A DNA stretch of 64,000 nt from an uncultured Dehalococcoidia bacterium (GTDB lineage Bacteria > Chloroflexota > Dehalococcoidia > DSTF01 > JACRBR01). The position numbers and the translations under genes are program-made. The notes under the pieces are model-generated. The model did not search any database and was not told where the DNA came from. It saw nothing but the letters and a program-made list of their open reading frames with translations. Shown in pieces: positions 5,482 through 16,466 of this stretch (position 1 is its first letter; each line of letters starts with the position of its first letter). The stretch covers positions 9,082-73,081 of the forward strand of contig CAZRHH010000004.1 in assembly GCA_964599885.1 (NCBI GenBank). The letters run 5' to 3'.

Positions 5482-8025
5482 CTAGAAGCCCTGGTTCACC
5501 TCAACAAAGCGGCCGAGTGGGTTCGGCGAGAAGGCCCAGATGTGGACCAGCCAGCCGGCCTTGTCGATCCACACCGGGTTTCCCGGGCGGGACATGCACG
5601 TCGCCTGTGGCACCAGCTCTTGTACCGACTGGAAGTTGTTCCACAGACACAGCGACTCGTGGTAGTGCCAGGCGTCCTCGTTGCCGGCGAAGCCGTCCGG
5701 CGGCAGCGGGACGATATCGATCGGCATGATGTACATCAAGCCGCCGAGCTTCCAACCGCCAGGGCGGCTCGCATCAGGCTCGTACAGCAGACTCTCCGGC
5801 TGACCCGGGATGAACACATCGTCCTGGCCGGCGACCGAGCCCCTCACGAGGTGCCGGCCCTGTCCCGGAATGTAGGGCGTCGTCTGGACGAATCCAGCCG
5901 CGAACGCGGCGTTGATGTTGTTGTACTGCTCGGTGCCGACAATCGCCTCGCGAATCTGCCGGTCGACCAGCGGGCAACTCGGTGTCTGTCCCTGCGCCGT
6001 GCCCCAGAGGTCAACGACGTTAATCACGCCGTTCGCATTCCAGTCCTTGAGCCTGGTGTACCCGGGCTGGCCGAAACGCTTGTCCATCTGCGTTGCGATC
6101 TGCTGCAGGTCGGCGACGTCGACGCTGCCGTTTCCGGTCACATCGAAGCAGAAGTACGGCTTCGGGTTCTCGGCAAACTGGGTAACGATAACGCGCACGC
6201 TGTCGGTGTCGATGTTACCGTCGTTGTCCGTGACGGTGAGCGTCACAAAGTGCTCCCCAAGCGTGAACTGCTTCGAGTCGACCGGGTTCGCCGAGAGGAC
6301 CGTGGTGCCCTCCTTCCACTCGTACGTCGCGATGAAGCCGTCCGGATCCTGAGAGTTGCGGCCGTCCAGCGTCACGTGCGAGTGGTCGTTATGCGCGATC
6401 GGGCCGCTCCAGTCCTCACCCGCATCCGCAGTTGGTGGCAGCACGCCGCCGCCGGCGCTGTAGTTGTAGCCCGCCGTCAGCGTCGCGCTTCCCACGCTGT
6501 TCGTGACCGTCACATCGACGAGTTCGGCGGCGTGCGCCGGGGTGACACCGGTGAGCGTGTTGGAGTTCTGCACACTAATGTTCGTCAACGACACGCCGTC
6601 GAGCGTCACCGTCGTCTCGGATGTCGTCGTGAAGTTCGTGCCCGAGACCGTGACCGTCTGCCCGCCGTCCACCGATCCACCTGCCGGCGAAATGCCGGTC
6701 ACAGTGATCCCGCTGACCGGAGTTTCATCCGGCTTGAAGAACGTAATCTTGTTGCCGCCGTACTCGGCGACGTAGATGGTGCCGTCCGGGCCGATGGCGA
6801 CGTCGAGCGCGTTCGGCAGGTTGGACGCCAGCGTGGTGTCCGAGACCACCGAGAGGCCGTCGGCCGAGAGCTGCACGCGATGCAGCGTGCTGTCTACCCA
6901 CGACACGTACAACAGGTCGCCCTGGAGCTGTCCGCCGAAGATGCCTGACTTGTACGCGGCAATGCCGTCCGACGATGGCGGCAGCAGCGCGATCGGCGCC
7001 CGGTAGTTGCCCGAACTGGGCTCCGTACCGGCCTTGTAGTCGCACTGCAGCGGGTCGTTCAGGTTGATCCCGCGATTGCGGTTTGGATGCCCGTAGTAGC
7101 GATCCTCTTCGATGATGTTCAGCTCATCCGCCGCCTGCGCGTCGATGCCGTCGTTGGTAAAACACCCCACCGATCCCGGGCCGTACCCGGCGTTCGGGCC
7201 GTTGTCCGTGTTGTAGAAGATCCCATTCTCGGAATGGAACAGCAGGTCGTACGGGTTACGCAATCCGCTCGCGTACACGTCCACGTCGCCGCCTGTTTGC
7301 GCGACCGCGGTACCGTACGTGCTCGCCGGCGAGTACGTGATGTTCCCGTTGAATCCAGAAGCGTTGACATCGGCTACGAGGATCGCGCCGCCGGTCGGCA
7401 CTTCTTCACGCTGGAACAAGCCGCCGTTCGGGTTGATCACGCCGGCGTTCGTCGTACCGCCCTGCGCGACGTACAGCCGGCCGTCTGGCCCGAACGTCAG
7501 ACCGTTGGCCTCGTGCCCGGAGTTCGCGACGGGCAACCCCGTGATGATGTCCGTGCGCGTGCCGTAGGCGGGTCCGTCGATTCGCGTCACCTTGCCCGGA
7601 AACGAACCGGCGGGCGCCTGCCCCGCATCTCCGAAGCCGGACACCGTGTTCGTCACATAGATTGTCGGCGGGCTCGATCCATCAGCGGGGTCGAACGCGA
7701 TGCCGAACACTTCCTGAAGCTGCGCGTTCGTCGTCACCTGCTGCACCGCTGTGACGGCTTTCGTGCCGGGATTCAGCGTCAGTGCCTGGATGCGGCCGTT
7801 CACGTCGGCGACGTAGAGGCGGCCATCCGGACCGACCTCCAGCGAACCAGGCTGCAACGTGGCGAACCCGGAACCGGCAATCGTGCCGCGGATGAAATTG
7901 ATCGGCTGAACGCCGTGCGCGACATCGGCCTTGCCGATCGAGAGCATCGCCGCAACCGCGAATACCAGCGCTGCGACGAACCACCACGTCGGGAAAGCCC
8001 AGGATCGATGCACGCCTGCCTCCAT
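5482..8025 (-). CDS. large secreted multidomain protein: N-terminal signal/anchor, soluble-quinoprotein-glucose-dehydrogenase-like beta-propeller, IPT/TIG, PKD, dockerin-like Ca-binding repeats, C-terminal domain of unknown function
   Basis: 847-aa ORF. Hydrophobic N-terminus; repeated GPDGRLYVA propeller blades; ISPAGGSVDGGQTVTVSGTNF (IPT); TLTVTDNDGN (PKD); DVTGNGSVDVADL and DWNANGVINVVDL (dockerin EF-hand-like pair). Confidence 0.75.
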   Translation of the reverse strand: MEAGVHRSWAFPTWWFVAALVFAVAAMLSIGKADVAHGVQPINFIRGTIAGSGFATLQPGSLEVGPDGRLYVADVNGRIQALTLNPGTKAVTAVQQVTTNAQLQEVFGIAFDPADGSSPPTIYVTNTVSGFGDAGQAPAGSFPGKVTRIDGPAYGTRTDIITGLPVANSGHEANGLTFGPDGRLYVAQGGTTNAGVINPNGGLFQREEVPTGGAILVADVNASGFNGNITYSPASTYGTAVAQTGGDVDVYASGLRNPYDLLFHSENGIFYNTDNGPNAGYGPGSVGCFTNDGIDAQAADELNIIEEDRYYGHPNRNRGINLNDPLQCDYKAGTEPSSGNYRAPIALLPPSSDGIAAYKSGIFGGQLQGDLLYVSWVDSTLHRVQLSADGLSVVSDTTLASNLPNALDVAIGPDGTIYVAEYGGNKITFFKPDETPVSGITVTGISPAGGSVDGGQTVTVSGTNFTTTSETTVTLDGVSLTNISVQNSNTLTGVTPAHAAELVDVTVTNSVGSATLTAGYNYSAGGGVLPPTADAGEDWSGPIAHNDHSHVTLDGRNSQDPDGFIATYEWKEGTTVLSANPVDSKQFTLGEHFVTLTVTDNDGNIDTDSVRVIVTQFAENPKPYFCFDVTGNGSVDVADLQQIATQMDKRFGQPGYTRLKDWNANGVINVVDLWGTAQGQTPSCPLVDRQIREAIVGTEQYNNINAAFAAGFVQTTPYIPGQGRHLVRGSVAGQDDVFIPGQPESLLYEPDASRPGGWKLGGLMYIMPIDIVPLPPDGFAGNEDAWHYHESLCLWNNFQSVQELVPQATCMSRPGNPVWIDKAGWLVHIWAFSPNPLGRFVEVNQGF

Positions 8026-11459: not shown

Positions 11460-11717
11460 TCAGGCGGATTGGCGCCCAGCGCCCGGCTCGCCATTGAGGG
11501 TCGCTGTTACGCGCTCGATGATCTCGGATGCAGGTCGCATGCCTTCGTCGGCTTCAATGACGATGAGTCGAATTCCAGCAAGAACGTCTCGTTCTTGCGA
11601 CGAAAGATCAGTATCGTAGTCCGACTGCACGAGCCATTCTCCGAAATCGCGCTGACTAAGCCGCCCCTCAGTGAAGCGTTGCAGCACCATGCGGGTCTCG
11701 GAGCTCAGTTGATTCAT
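11460..11717 (-). CDS. hypothetical small protein (86 aa)
   Basis: ORF starting MNQLSSETRMVLQRF, in a lower-GC pocket. Its start codon shares a CATG with the divergent ORF at 11716. Confidence 0.35.
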   Translation of the reverse strand: MNQLSSETRMVLQRFTEGRLSQRDFGEWLVQSDYDTDLSSQERDVLAGIRLIVIEADEGMRPASEIIERVTATLNGEPGAGRQSA

Positions 11718-12003
11718 GGCCAAACCATCCACTATTGAAATCACGCCGTCGGAGCTTGAGGACTTGTTCATGGCCCTCAAACTGTGGGAGAAGATCAACG
11801 GTGGCCATGTTACTGACGAACCCATTCCCGAACGCGCCGTGCCGTCGCACGGGTATCCCGGGGGGACGAGCGATATCGTCCGGCATCGCAACGCGGGCTA
11901 TCACGTGGCCACGACGCATCGTATCACAATGCCGGACGGCACTATTCCGCATTGGGACGCGAAGGACATCCACATCGGCGACATCGTGGTTCTAGCGCGC
12001 TGA
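11716..12003 (+). CDS. hypothetical small protein (95 aa)
   Basis: ORF MAKPSTIEITPSELEDLF... in the same lower-GC pocket; no family recognised. Confidence 0.35.
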   Translation: MAKPSTIEITPSELEDLFMALKLWEKINGGHVTDEPIPERAVPSHGYPGGTSDIVRHRNAGYHVATTHRITMPDGTIPHWDAKDIHIGDIVVLAR

Positions 12004-13568: not shown

Positions 13569-14051
13569 TCAGGCGGCGCTGAAGCCCGAGTCGAGTTCAT
13601 CGAGATCGGCATTGAAGTCGAAGATCAGCTGGATCGGTTCTCCCGTATTCCCGTTGTCGTTGAAACTGTCAGCGTCCGTCTTGAGCTGGTGGCAATCGGC
13701 AACGATACCCTGACGCCGCTGCTGAAGAGAAACCTCCATGTGTCCGCGCGATGCCGTGCGAATATCATCCCACATGCTCGCCTGCTCTCCCTTCTCGCGC
13801 TTGGGCAACCGAACAACGTGCTTCGTCCGCACGCGGCGCCCCTGGGCGTCAGTGTAATACTCATCCCGCAATGCCCGCGCAAACTGATCGACGCACTGGC
13901 GGATCAATGCTCCCGGCTGGGGCTTCCAGTGGTTGTTCGCGATCGCCCAGTTCGCTACGTCGCGCAGTGTGGTGGGACCGGCGATACCATTCTCGGCCTG
14001 GTATCGGCGGAACAGGCCCTGCATCTGCTCGTTGAACGTAGACACATTCAC
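13569..14051 (-). CDS. hypothetical protein (160 aa), third gene of the HigB/HigA-peptidase module
   Basis: GTG start 16 nt after the HigA-ImmA stop, on the same strand. No recognisable family; lower GC than the flanks. Confidence 0.5.
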   Translation of the reverse strand: MNVSTFNEQMQGLFRRYQAENGIAGPTTLRDVANWAIANNHWKPQPGALIRQCVDQFARALRDEYYTDAQGRRVRTKHVVRLPKREKGEQASMWDDIRTASRGHMEVSLQQRRQGIVADCHQLKTDADSFNDNGNTGEPIQLIFDFNADLDELDSGFSAA

Positions 14052-14067
14052 ATCCTTTGGCTGTTGG

Positions 14068-15210
14068 TTAGACGTTGCCCGGCAGTTGGGATCCCCAGCC
14101 GTCAGTCAATGTGGAACCGATAACGATTTGGCGGATCGGGACGAGCAGTTTTCGGAGGTTGGCGTAACTGATTTCATGGAGGTGCTGTAGTTGGCCAACA
14201 ACAATGCCAGCATGTACCCCCGTCGTCCGGGCGAAGTTGTTCACGCGAGTAGCAGAAAACAACGGTCGAACACGAAGAACAAAGTCATGCAGCTGTTCCT
14301 TCGGAATCAGTGAGTTAACGGCGAAATCATCCGCGCGCCGTTCCGCCTCCGACTTTTCGCCCGCCAATAAACGCACCTCGTTAACTATCTCCTGATCGAG
14401 GACTGTGCCGTCCTCAAACAAGATGTGGGCGATCTCGTGCATCAAGGTGTGCCAAAAGTGGTCGATCCTGTCGTACCGGAGCGAAAGAACCACGACAGGA
14501 GCGTTGTCGAGCCAGAAGGAAGCACCATCAATTTTGGTGCCAGTGAGAGCCTCAACCATCAGGAAGCGGACGCCGTATTCTGAAAGGAGTTTGGGTACGT
14601 GGCGGGCGTTCTCGGGTTCATTCGCCAATTCTTTCAGTTCCCGTACGAGGGCGGGCAACTGCGCGCGAGAAAATGATTGCGTTGCGACGGCGGGCGCGAG
14701 CTGTCTGACTCTGCAAAGCCACGCGAGTTGAGCCGGAGAAGGTTTCTCATCATAGGATGTTGATTTGCGTGCCGCGTGCGCAAACTGCGGTTCGTCATCG
14801 AGAGTATCGATCCTCAGAAACTCCAATACCGCCAGCTCCAAAGCACCAATGTCACGCGTATCCTCGATCCAGTTCCGGCGAATCATTTCCCGCACCGGTG
14901 CCTTTGCGTACAAGCGCGCTCGTCGTGACACGGTGTCATCACGGTTGACGCGCGAGAGCCGGTACATCGATTCGAGATTGAGCCAGTACTGCGCACTTCC
15001 GCCGAGCGCGTCAGCGAGTGACTGGGCCGTCTCCGGCGTGATCCCGCGCTTTGCAGAGAGAATCTCGTGGACAACTGTGGGGCCGCGGCCGAGAATTTCG
15101 GCGAGGTCTGTTTGCGTCCAGCCACGCGCCTCGAGCTCGTCCTGCAAGAACTCGCCCGGGGAGAATACCTCGGCCGGGATCAGGTGCTCATTGCTCCTCT
15201 CGTGATTCAT
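14068..15210 (-). CDS. higA: HigA-type XRE HTH antitoxin fused to ImmA/IrrE (COG2856) Zn-metallopeptidase domain
   Basis: The N-terminus (PGEFLQDELEARGWTQTDLAEILG...AQYWLNLESMY) matches the HigA/VapI HTH. The C-terminus has HEIAHILFED, an HExxH motif in ImmA/IrrE context. Its start codon abuts the higB stop. Confidence 0.75.
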   Translation of the reverse strand: MNHERSNEHLIPAEVFSPGEFLQDELEARGWTQTDLAEILGRGPTVVHEILSAKRGITPETAQSLADALGGSAQYWLNLESMYRLSRVNRDDTVSRRARLYAKAPVREMIRRNWIEDTRDIGALELAVLEFLRIDTLDDEPQFAHAARKSTSYDEKPSPAQLAWLCRVRQLAPAVATQSFSRAQLPALVRELKELANEPENARHVPKLLSEYGVRFLMVEALTGTKIDGASFWLDNAPVVVLSLRYDRIDHFWHTLMHEIAHILFEDGTVLDQEIVNEVRLLAGEKSEAERRADDFAVNSLIPKEQLHDFVLRVRPLFSATRVNNFARTTGVHAGIVVGQLQHLHEISYANLRKLLVPIRQIVIGSTLTDGWGSQLPGNV

Positions 15211-15507
15211 CTAGTGGTAATCCTCGATCTTTTTCACCAAGACGATCTTGTTGGGAGCCGCCCCGGTCAGCTCTACGATCAGCCGGTACTGGTCGTTCAG
15301 GCGGAGTGAATGCTCATGCTGCCGTTTCCCTGCTAGTCGCTCGAACCGCAACGCCGGTCGTGCGTATAAATCGCGCTCATCAACAGCTGCACTTATCGCT
15401 TGCGTCGTCTTACGAAATCCCTTGACTAGGGCGAGAGACAGTCCTGCCGTAAAGCCCTTCTCCGTGTAGAGCCTCGTCAGCTTGGCGTCCGCGAATTCCA
15501 TTTCCAT
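15211..15507 (-). CDS. higB: HigB toxin (COG3549 plasmid-maintenance killer, RelE/ParE superfamily)
   Basis: MEFADAKL...GKRQHEHSLRLNDQYRLIVEL...IEDYH matches the Proteus-type HigB C-terminal signature (…EDYH). Start taken at MEMEF; the longer ORF extends to 15606. Confidence 0.7.
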   Translation of the reverse strand: MEMEFADAKLTRLYTEKGFTAGLSLALVKGFRKTTQAISAAVDERDLYARPALRFERLAGKRQHEHSLRLNDQYRLIVELTGAAPNKIVLVKKIEDYH

Positions 15508-15641
15508 CGGTTCGGGCGATCTTATTCGATCGTCCGAACCAACGCAACTATAGTTATCATGTTCTGCAGGAAATAGCAATATAGTATCCTCACGTTTTCC
15601 GGACATCGTGAAGATGTCGATACTCCTCCCTCGCCACGCTG

Positions 15642-15657
15642 CTTTCCTGTAGGAAAG
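15642..15657. promoter_or_regulatory. palindrome CTTTCCT-GT-AGGAAAG upstream of higB (candidate HigA operator)
   Basis: Perfect 7-bp inverted arms with a 2-bp spacer. A related half-site, TTTCCTGCAGAA, lies at 15562-15575 inside an AT-rich promoter-like stretch. Confidence 0.4.
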
Positions 15658-15731
15658 TGCCAGATTTCACAAGGTTTGACGCGCGATCGCCGAAAACCCG
15701 TTGACCGAAGCTCTGGAGGCGGTACAATTCT

Positions 15732-16466
15732 GTGTGCCTCGAACCTCGAACCGGAGATTGCACAGATTTGCCGAGCTTTCACGCCCCTGAACCTGCCGTA
15801 GCCTCCCTCGCGCTTGCCGATGGCGATCGCTGGCTGACGCTTGGCCAGGCCTGCCGCCTCCTCAATGTCGACGAATCGACGTTGCGGCGCTGGGCCGATG
15901 CCGCGCAGGTGCGCACGTTCCGCACCCCTGGCGGCCACCGCCGCTTCGCCGAGGGCGACGTCCGCGCGATCATGAACGGCCGCACCCGCAAGCAATTCTC
16001 CGACGTCGGTGATCTCGCGACGCGCCGCATCCGCCAGCAACTCCACCGCAAGGATCACGGCGCCTGGTACGACACCGTCGACGAGGCGCAGCGCGAGAAG
16101 CTGCGTCCGCTCGGCCGCCGCCTGATGGCGCTTGTCGCCGACTATCTCGCAAAGCGCGGGCGCAAGACGTCGCTGCTCGAAGAAGCGCGCGTGACGGGCG
16201 CCGAGTACGGAATCGAGCTCGCGCACTCCGGTATGTCGCTGTCGCAGGCGATGGAGGCGTTCACGTTCTTCCGCCGCAGCCTCGATCAGTCGGCGAAGCA
16301 GGCGCTGGCGAAAGCCGGCAGCGCGCCGGCCGATTCCGTCGACGTGTGCGAGCAGATCATGGCCCTGGCCGACGAGGTGCTGCTCGGCATCGCCGGCGCC
16401 TACGAACACGAGTCATCGTCCGCGGCGCCAGCAGAAGCGACAGCCGAAGGGCGTGGCGATGCCTGA
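15732..16466 (+). CDS. MerR/excisionase-type HTH DNA-binding protein with C-terminal domain of unknown function
   Basis: LTLGQACRLLNVDESTLRRWADAAQVRTFRTPGGHRRFAEGDV is a typical HTH_17/MerR-like motif. The true start may be internal. Confidence 0.5.
   Translation: MCLEPRTGDCTDLPSFHAPEPAVASLALADGDRWLTLGQACRLLNVDESTLRRWADAAQVRTFRTPGGHRRFAEGDVRAIMNGRTRKQFSDVGDLATRRIRQQLHRKDHGAWYDTVDEAQREKLRPLGRRLMALVADYLAKRGRKTSLLEEARVTGAEYGIELAHSGMSLSQAMEAFTFFRRSLDQSAKQALAKAGSAPADSVDVCEQIMALADEVLLGIAGAYEHESSSAAPAEATAEGRGDA

Follow-up and report, generated by a model that had tools for sequence, protein, structure and literature searches.

A mobile three-gene cassette of the HigB/Xre-M78 type with a conserved third gene of an unnamed family in a Dehalococcoidia genome

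A block of three minus-strand genes in the genome of an uncultured Dehalococcoidia bacterium (Chloroflexota) resembles a higBA toxin-antitoxin (TA) operon followed by a small gene of no evident relationship, and we asked whether this third gene is a genuine part of the system and what the three genes may do together. The block lies in a stretch of 64,000 nucleotides (nt), hereafter the window (assembly GCA_964599885.1, contig CAZRHH010000004.1, positions 9,082 to 73,081), for which a first-pass annotation had been prepared from the nucleotide sequence. All three co-oriented open reading frames (ORFs) it had listed are present: gene A (15507..15211, minus strand; 98 amino acids (aa), HigB-like), gene B (15210..14068, minus; 380 aa, a HigA-type helix-turn-helix (HTH) with an M78 peptidase) and gene C (14051..13569, minus; 158 or 160 aa, unnamed family, likely start GTG at 14045). 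The junctions are also as it gave them, the TAG stop of gene A abutting the ATG of gene B and 16 nt separating the stop of gene B from the GTG at 14051.

The third gene and its linkage to gene B

Searches with gene C gave no match in Pfam (to E <= 0.1), NCBIfam, PADLOC (to E <= 10) or PHROGs, in agreement with the annotation, which had assigned it to no known family. A word-indexed search returned 165 matches, all of about 150-165 aa and all labelled 'hypothetical'; the homologues showed 47-78% identity, occurred across phyla and kept a steady length of about 155 aa. The exhaustive profile search indicated that the family comprises 1,398 clusters at 50% identity with E <= 1e-3, 872 of them at E <= 1e-10. 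Alignment of 34 sequences revealed 22 invariant columns and the conserved motifs ALREEYxTDxQGRRVRxKH, WDDIRTA, QQRRxxIVxDCxQLKxDxDSxN and FDFxxDLxEL. The AlphaFold2 model was confident (pLDDT 87, pTM 0.66) and consisted of three helices, a four-stranded beta-meander and three further helices, the N-terminal and beta regions being basic and the C-terminal helix acidic. Foldseek searches with this model gave no match in PDB (E > 0.6) or BFVD (E > 0.4), and the gene C profile matched no PDB sequence at E <= 10. Gene C encodes a genuine protein that is strongly conserved, belongs to an unnamed family and has no recognisable fold. Three long matches (P0250, P0224 and P0204) were considered as gene C fusions and rejected, the similarity stopping abruptly after the QLK motif; they look like frameshift or assembly chimeras.

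The synteny of gene C was analysed in one genome per species (GTDB representatives), where 272 loci were found and 80 fetched. Loci with gene C occurred in Chloroflexota, Acidobacteriota, Planctomycetota, Pseudomonadota, Nitrospirota, Armatimonadota, Gemmatimonadota, Bacteroidota, Bacillota, Patescibacteria and other phyla. A gene B homologue was found immediately 5' of gene C in all 80 genomic loci, and gene A 5' of gene B in 74 of them; four of the six loci without gene A are at contig ends, L038 carries an IS1595-type transposase in its place and the sixth is L067. Intergenic gaps were mostly between -8 and +30 nt. Because the same order and tight gaps recur in 80 loci from more than ten phyla, the A-B-C arrangement is far beyond chance. 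Among the IMG/VR sequences, 43 viral or prophage contigs carried gene C, with gene B directly 5' in 40; the three exceptions were two contig ends and one decayed gene C remnant. Homologues of gene C are thus regularly syntenic with HigB/HigA genes, a point on which the annotation had been reserved. Its claim that gene C is obligatorily linked stands from the side of gene C (80/80 and 40/43) and fails from the side of gene B, which elsewhere is followed by other third genes or by none; on plasmids, B-like genes were found in 70 records and gene C in only 3.

Gene starts were examined individually. On two metagenomic contigs, genes called independently had products of 98, 380 and 158 aa for A, B and C, respectively. 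A 131-aa ORF for gene A, starting at 15606, was rejected in favour of the 98-aa form because homologues align from Met34 and the independent calls agree with the shorter product. Gene C more likely begins at its second GTG (14045), given that an AAAGGA Shine-Dalgarno sequence is located 7 nt 5' of this codon and that the resulting 158-aa product is the one predicted by the gene calls. The annotation had itself raised the doubt that gene C might be a spurious GTG-start ORF, which would reduce the module to a mere two-gene higBA pair. The non-ATG start and the absence of a database family would speak for such an artefact, but it is refuted by hundreds of homologues in different phyla sharing the invariant columns, by the constant length and strict synteny with gene B, by the concordant gene calls and by the confident structural model, and we regard it as practically impossible.

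Genes A and B and their known relatives

The annotation had described gene B as a HigA antitoxin fused to a metallopeptidase, and matches above the cut-offs of three profiles bear this out. Residues 16-90 (14941..15165, minus) pass the NCBIfam model TIGR02607 antidote_HigA with 49.7 bits against a cut-off of 47.7, the N-terminus matches Pfam HTH_3 (E = 1.3e-8) and the HTH aligns with the PDB structures of HigA (2ICP, 4MCX) and GraA (6F8H) at E = 1e-8 to 1e-5; by homology, this domain would bind both DNA and the toxin. Residues 218-312 (14275..14559, minus) correspond to PF06114 Peptidase_M78 (30 bits against a cut-off of 22), so that the expected ImmA-type match was obtained. The motif HEIAHILFED, noted earlier, was found at residues 258-267 and includes the HExxH zinc motif H258-E259-x-x-H262 (14439..14425, minus); E290 (14343..14341, minus) is the putative third zinc ligand, which we assign by analogy with IrrE. 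H258, E259, H262 and E290 were each at least 90% conserved in 77 gene B sequences. By homology and conservation, gene B encodes a HigA-type HTH joined to a catalytically intact M78 (ImmA/IrrE, COG2856) zinc peptidase. It also matched phrog_2439 (E = 1e-30).

Gene A matched PF05015 HigB-like_toxin (E = 6.2e-11, 43 bits against a cut-off of 27) and phrog_3066, a 'toxin of TA system', and its nearest solved structure was Pseudomonas putida GraT (PDB 6F8S_B, E = 5e-8), in line with the initial call of a HigB-like toxin. Its C-terminus, D96-Y97-H98, is at least 90% conserved across 75 homologues and corresponds to Asp90-Tyr91-His92 of P. vulgaris HigB, residues needed for ribosome-dependent mRNA cleavage (PMC5027501). 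By homology and conservation, gene A encodes a HigB/GraT-type ribosome-dependent mRNase of the RelE superfamily, a putative toxin with its catalytic D-Y-H intact. Since this triad is conserved in the window's own clade, gene A is probably an active RNase there.

The closest characterised relative of the locus is PD-λ-2, a system recovered by functional selection from Escherichia coli ECOR42 (RCO93357/6/5; Vassallo et al. 2022, Nat Microbiol; PMC9519451), in which a HigB-like gene and a gene for an Xre-peptidase fusion precede a third gene and which provides abortive-infection defence against λvir (PMC9519451). Its third gene, PD-λ-2C, is dispensable for neutralisation of toxicity and required for defence against λvir (PMC9519451); our literature search found no later mechanistic study of the system. 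Both loci have three co-oriented genes in like order, and gene B is a full-length homologue of PD-Lambda-2_B (PADLOC PDLC03982; E = 2.2e-46, residues 11-355 of 380 against model positions 53-386 of 402). The two other components differ. PD-λ-2A is a PF09907 HigB_toxin (PMC9519451 supplement) whereas gene A, though of the same superfamily and in the same position, belongs to PF05015 and matched no PADLOC model, PD-Lambda-2_A included, even at E <= 10; PD-λ-2C is a Beta_protein of about 360 aa that matches PF14350 with HHpred probability 100 (PMC9519451 supplement), whereas gene C is an unrelated, unnamed protein of about 158 aa. Since PD-Lambda-2_B is the only PD-λ-2 profile of the three to find a match, current defence finders would not call the window locus. 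The annotation had stated that Xre-COG2856 antitoxins are known from surveys with little experimental work; the former part is correct, the association having been catalogued in 2009, while the latter overlooked the experimentally validated PD-λ-2.

Close relatives of gene B (PD-Lambda-2_B matches at E of about 1e-42 to 1e-45) carry different third genes or none. In Thauera plasmid pTX1 (L083, 4696-6151), an A-B pair whose B is 47% identical to that of the window is followed by a 49-aa ORF and then by a 419-aa protein nearly perfectly matching PADLOC PDC-S54 (E = 7.6e-162), which suggests that PDC-S54 sometimes belongs to a HigB/Xre-M78 operon. In Deinococcus radiophilus plasmid pRadio3 (L089, 1-2011 and 3562-4950), the A-B pair is followed by a Schlafen/AlbA_2-HATPase_c_4-Fic-like_C gene coupled to it translationally by a stop/start overlap, and a restriction-modification S subunit with DUF262 lies on the other side. 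A relative in Mycobacterium abscessus has as third gene a 365-aa protein of unknown family, and no third gene follows A-B in Arthrobacter, Chondrocystis, Micrococcus and Tenacibaculum. In a Micrococcus luteus plasmid (L087, 86-1969), the two-gene A-B pair adjoins a ThiF / multiubiquitin / DUF6527 operon, and this context and that of L089 are defence-island-like. With other third genes or none behind close relatives of gene B, A-B is a conserved chassis and the slot that follows it is exchangeable. Modularity of this kind agrees with a sensor or specificity role for the third gene.

Comparison with HigBA/GraTA (P. vulgaris HigBA and P. putida GraTA, PDB 6F8S) indicated a shared toxin-first order, homology of gene A to GraT with the C-terminal D-Y-H, homology of the gene B N-terminus to HigA/GraA and, as predicted here, a palindromic operator upstream. 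HigA, however, is a protein of about 100 aa whereas gene B has an additional 290 aa including an active-looking zinc peptidase; the window locus further differs in its conserved third gene, and the toxicity roles are inverted in the related PD-λ-2. ImmA-ImmR, IrrE(PprI)-DdrO and CapP-CapH likewise combine an M78 HExxH peptidase with an Xre-type HTH repressor and are tied to mobile elements and immune operons, but gene B contains both activities in a single polypeptide with the HTH at the N-terminus. In CapP and IrrE the peptidase comes first, followed by an HTH and by a GAF domain at the C-terminus, and the substrate is a separate HTH repressor; the partner of gene B is a RelE-fold protein, and no single-stranded-DNA-binding module was evident. 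The PADLOC matches of gene B to capP and capH were weak, the capP match being confined to residues 254-315.

The antitoxin RmrA of RosmerTA (RmrT/RmrA) is also an Xre-HTH plus M78 protein in a defence TA pair, and gene B matched it partially (E = 1e-9 to 1e-3), far more weakly than PD-Lambda-2_B; the partner genes differ and no RmrT-like toxin was found at the window locus. The association of RelE with an Xre-COG2856 fusion was catalogued by Makarova et al. 2009, who predicted a 'three-component TAS' (toxin-antitoxin system) with RelE or PIN toxins and a more complex TA circuit; that association is the one seen here, but no conserved third gene was defined and the gene C family was not described. 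A third gene of the toxin-antitoxin-chaperone (TAC) type was also looked for, and neither the sequence nor the fold searches matched gene C to SecB or another chaperone.

Mobility, base composition and upstream region

Pairs of loci from different metagenome-assembled genomes (MAGs) were 88-94% identical over about 2.3 kb only, with unrelated flanks. Besides A-B-C, the shared segment takes in about 80 nt on the upstream side and 250-330 nt on the downstream side; the A-B-C cassette moves as a unit of this size. A 4.9-kb element with 30-nt terminal inverted repeats, an IS1595-family transposase and A-B-C as cargo is present twice in one Acidobacteriota MAG (L016 3501-8442 and L017 3501-8442), the copies being 99.98% identical; the transposase replacing gene A in L038 is of the same type. 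A Pfam scan of 129 neighbouring ORFs across the loci revealed a heterogeneous collection without a conserved neighbour, in which defence or mobility genes included ResIII (7 loci), SIR2_2, Type ISP, Abi_2, HipA, a methylase, a resolvase and ParB.

In the window, the lower guanine-plus-cytosine (GC) content reported for the module was confirmed, genes A to C having GC of 0.56-0.60 and third-position GC (GC3) of 0.66-0.75 against 0.64-0.69 and 0.81-0.88 in five neighbouring genes. The low GC and GC3, together with the presence of the 2.3-kb unit between unrelated flanks, support the earlier proposal of horizontal acquisition, and the block looks horizontally acquired. Searches of the window for signs of a mobile element found neither a tRNA nor flanking repeats, whether direct or inverted, and no Rfam family scored above threshold. 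Two Logan contigs identical to the window region (L081, L082), which come from independent metagenome assemblies, both end about 75 nt after the gene C stop, which hints at strain heterogeneity at the downstream edge of the module.

A small convergent ORF on the opposite strand 3' of gene C (L007, L016, L017, L019, L030, L038, L072, L076) was considered as a fourth core gene on account of its GGLKGGKARAxKLTPEER tail and rejected, as it occurred in only 8 of 80 loci and is absent from the window. It is situated 48-68 nt downstream of gene C in six loci and about 500 nt downstream in L016 and L017, ends in ...GGLKGGKARAxKLTPEERSEIAxxAAxARW and sits inside the region common to L019 and L026.

Upstream of gene A, a perfect 10-nt palindrome, AACTATAGTT (15546..15555, minus), was read from the sequence about 40 nt before the start codon; it contains TATAGT, a -10-like hexamer. 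In related loci, a TACAC-N3-7-GTGTA palindrome occurred at -47 to -63 from the gene A start in 26 of 74 loci, against a background rate of 0.0014 per 130 nt, and often lay just 5' of TTGACA; other loci had different palindromes at the equivalent position. Such palindromes would fit autorepression by the gene B HTH with co-evolving operators, and AACTATAGTT is a candidate operator for this domain. An interrupted 12-bp inverted repeat, GGTTCGGACGATCGAATAAGATCGCCCGAACC (15509..15540, minus), may form a 5'-leader hairpin and ends 1 nt before the gene A ATG. RNA folding of 15560..15490 gave -29.2 kcal/mol (z = -5.2, equalled by none of 200 shuffles), and the extended fold places the gene A start codon inside the stem. 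The hairpin was not obviously conserved at the other loci; it may act in the DNA as an operator or in the mRNA as a brake on translation of the putative toxin.

The flanks carry housekeeping genes, as first described: a D-aminoacylase-like ORF on one side and, beyond an HTH gene on the other, sirohaem synthase, hemA and hemC. The HTH gene (15732-16466, plus strand), divergent from the module, encodes a 244-aa protein with a BldC/MerR/excisionase-type HTH (NF033787, E = 1.7e-14, below the cut-off) and is located directly 5' of an 89-aa ORF that precedes the sirohaem synthase gene. A second patch of lower GC (about 0.58), at 11460-12003 between oxidoreductase and D-aminoacylase genes, is occupied by a minus-strand ORF of 143 aa and a plus-strand ORF of 95 aa that overlap, neither with a Pfam match, and may be another small acquired gene.

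Possible function of the module

The relationships described above suggest a mobile, autoregulated, TA-derived switch of the PD-λ-2 type in which gene C couples a signal to the peptidase, a proposal made largely by analogy on which our belief and doubt are evenly balanced. The module most likely works in abortive infection or stress-triggered growth arrest. In uninfected cells, the HigA domain of gene B would bind and neutralise A and would also repress the operon at the palindromic operator just upstream of the promoter. Reasoning by analogy with ImmA-ImmR, IrrE-DdrO and CapP-CapH, we propose that the M78 domain acts as the switch upon a trigger and cuts either the HTH module or a partner; cleavage would release A to cut mRNA and derepress the operon. 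Gene C would be a clade-specific accessory, sensor or adaptor coupling the trigger to the peptidase, and its role, by comparison with PD-λ-2, would most likely be that of a trigger or specificity subunit. Such an accessory role parallels that of PD-λ-2C, needed in defence and dispensable in neutralisation.

A divergent subclade bears on this proposal. In the IMG/VR loci L111-L132 (about 6550-6870), gene C is 32-37% identical, and the ORF in the A position still has about 95 aa, overlaps the gene B start and in many of these loci is still matched by the gene A hidden Markov model (E = 1e-15 to 1e-5). Gene B keeps RHELEH and E290, and gene C keeps its core motifs. Just upstream of the module in L122 lies a gene with a KilA-N domain.

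Several observations weigh against the switch as proposed. The A ORFs of L111-L132 no longer have the D-Y-H at the C-terminus or the RLNxQxRL motif, and PD-λ-2B is toxic on its own and is neutralised by PD-λ-2A (PMC9519451); for these two reasons the effector may not be gene A, at least family-wide. The labels first given to the genes, a HigB toxin and a gene B antitoxin, consequently hold as statements of homology and are questionable as statements of function. Because the A ORFs of L111-L132 lost the triad while the motifs of B and C were kept, the pair that does not vary appears from sequence conservation to be B and C, and that lineage seems able to do without the RNase chemistry of A. Gene B has no GAF domain match in Pfam and only about 70 residues after the peptidase, and we know of no HTH-M78 fusion for which self-cleavage was shown. 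The fold searches detected no nucleic-acid- or ligand-binding fold in gene C, for which reason a sensor role is just one possibility. The TACAC..GTGTA consensus is absent upstream of gene A in the window, so that AACTATAGTT is assigned as operator only tentatively. Many A-B-C loci, that of the window included, lie amid housekeeping genes and not in defence islands.

The same observations have to be weighed under two other explanations. In the main rival proposal, gene C could itself be the effector, a small toxin or interference protein, with A-B as a regulatory or guard cassette: gene B would repress the operon, its activated peptidase would derepress C, and A would be a HigB-derived partner restraining B. 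The other genes found in the third position are in keeping with this, since close B relatives lie directly 5' of the stand-alone defence candidate PDC-S54 or of the Schlafen-type gene, as are the subclade in which A lacks the catalytic triad with B and C still under purifying selection, the PD-λ-2 findings that A neutralises B and that C is needed for defence, and the weak capH/capP-type matches of gene B, CapP-CapH being a regulator of many immune operons. Against it speak the small size of gene C (about 155 aa) and its lack of a fold match and of any signature of an enzyme, a membrane protein or a nuclease; its co-transcription with the presumed repressor would make basal, unneutralised toxin problematic, and the conservation of the catalytic residues of A in sequences from many phyla points to A as an active effector in the window's clade; we therefore consider an effector role of gene C unlikely, although worth serious attention.

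The module could also be a plain HigBA-type II addiction module serving selfish maintenance or stress-induced stasis rather than phage defence, with gene C stabilising or chaperoning the antitoxin like the SecB-like chaperone of TAC systems. The HigB/HigA homology holds, the cassette is present on plasmids, A-B pairs without a third gene exist, and the minimal cassette spreads into unrelated chromosomal contexts, often beside housekeeping genes. Against this, the conservation of the M78 HExxH and E290 throughout points to a regulated proteolytic step and not to passive neutralisation, gene C resembles no chaperone, the homologous PD-λ-2 defends against phage, and the module is carried by the 43 prophage or viral contigs and has defence genes among several of its neighbours. 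Addiction alone appears to us quite improbable.

A more speculative arrangement, which we hold to be doubtful though deserving of mention, makes B and C the functional pair, C being a new-fold partner of the M78 peptidase and A mainly an inhibitor of B. Gene C could then supply GAF-like sensing in trans or act as target or effector of the peptidase, and the RNase activity of A would be an optional addition discarded by some lineages. If so, the module would be an immune switch assembled from TA parts around a protease, and its third slot would be interchangeable among C, Beta_protein, PDC-S54 and Schlafen-type genes.

The architecture, the type of gene B and the RelE plus Xre-COG2856 association (2009) were already known; new are the gene C family and the strictness with which it is tied to B, a third slot open to exchange, the clade with a degenerate A and the mobility of the cassette. 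PD-λ-2 is among the least understood of the validated defence systems, its toxicity logic being inverted and neither the substrate of its peptidase nor the role of its third gene being known. As a chassis, the HigB / Xre-M78 core is widespread, gene C being found in 272 species-representative genomes and 43 IMG/VR contigs and forming about 1,400 clusters, and the commonest environmental third-gene partner that we found is this unnamed protein without a known fold. At 2.3 kb the cassette is compact and readily cloned, and the subclade that has lost the HigB triad and retained B and C offers a natural handle on which component is the effector.

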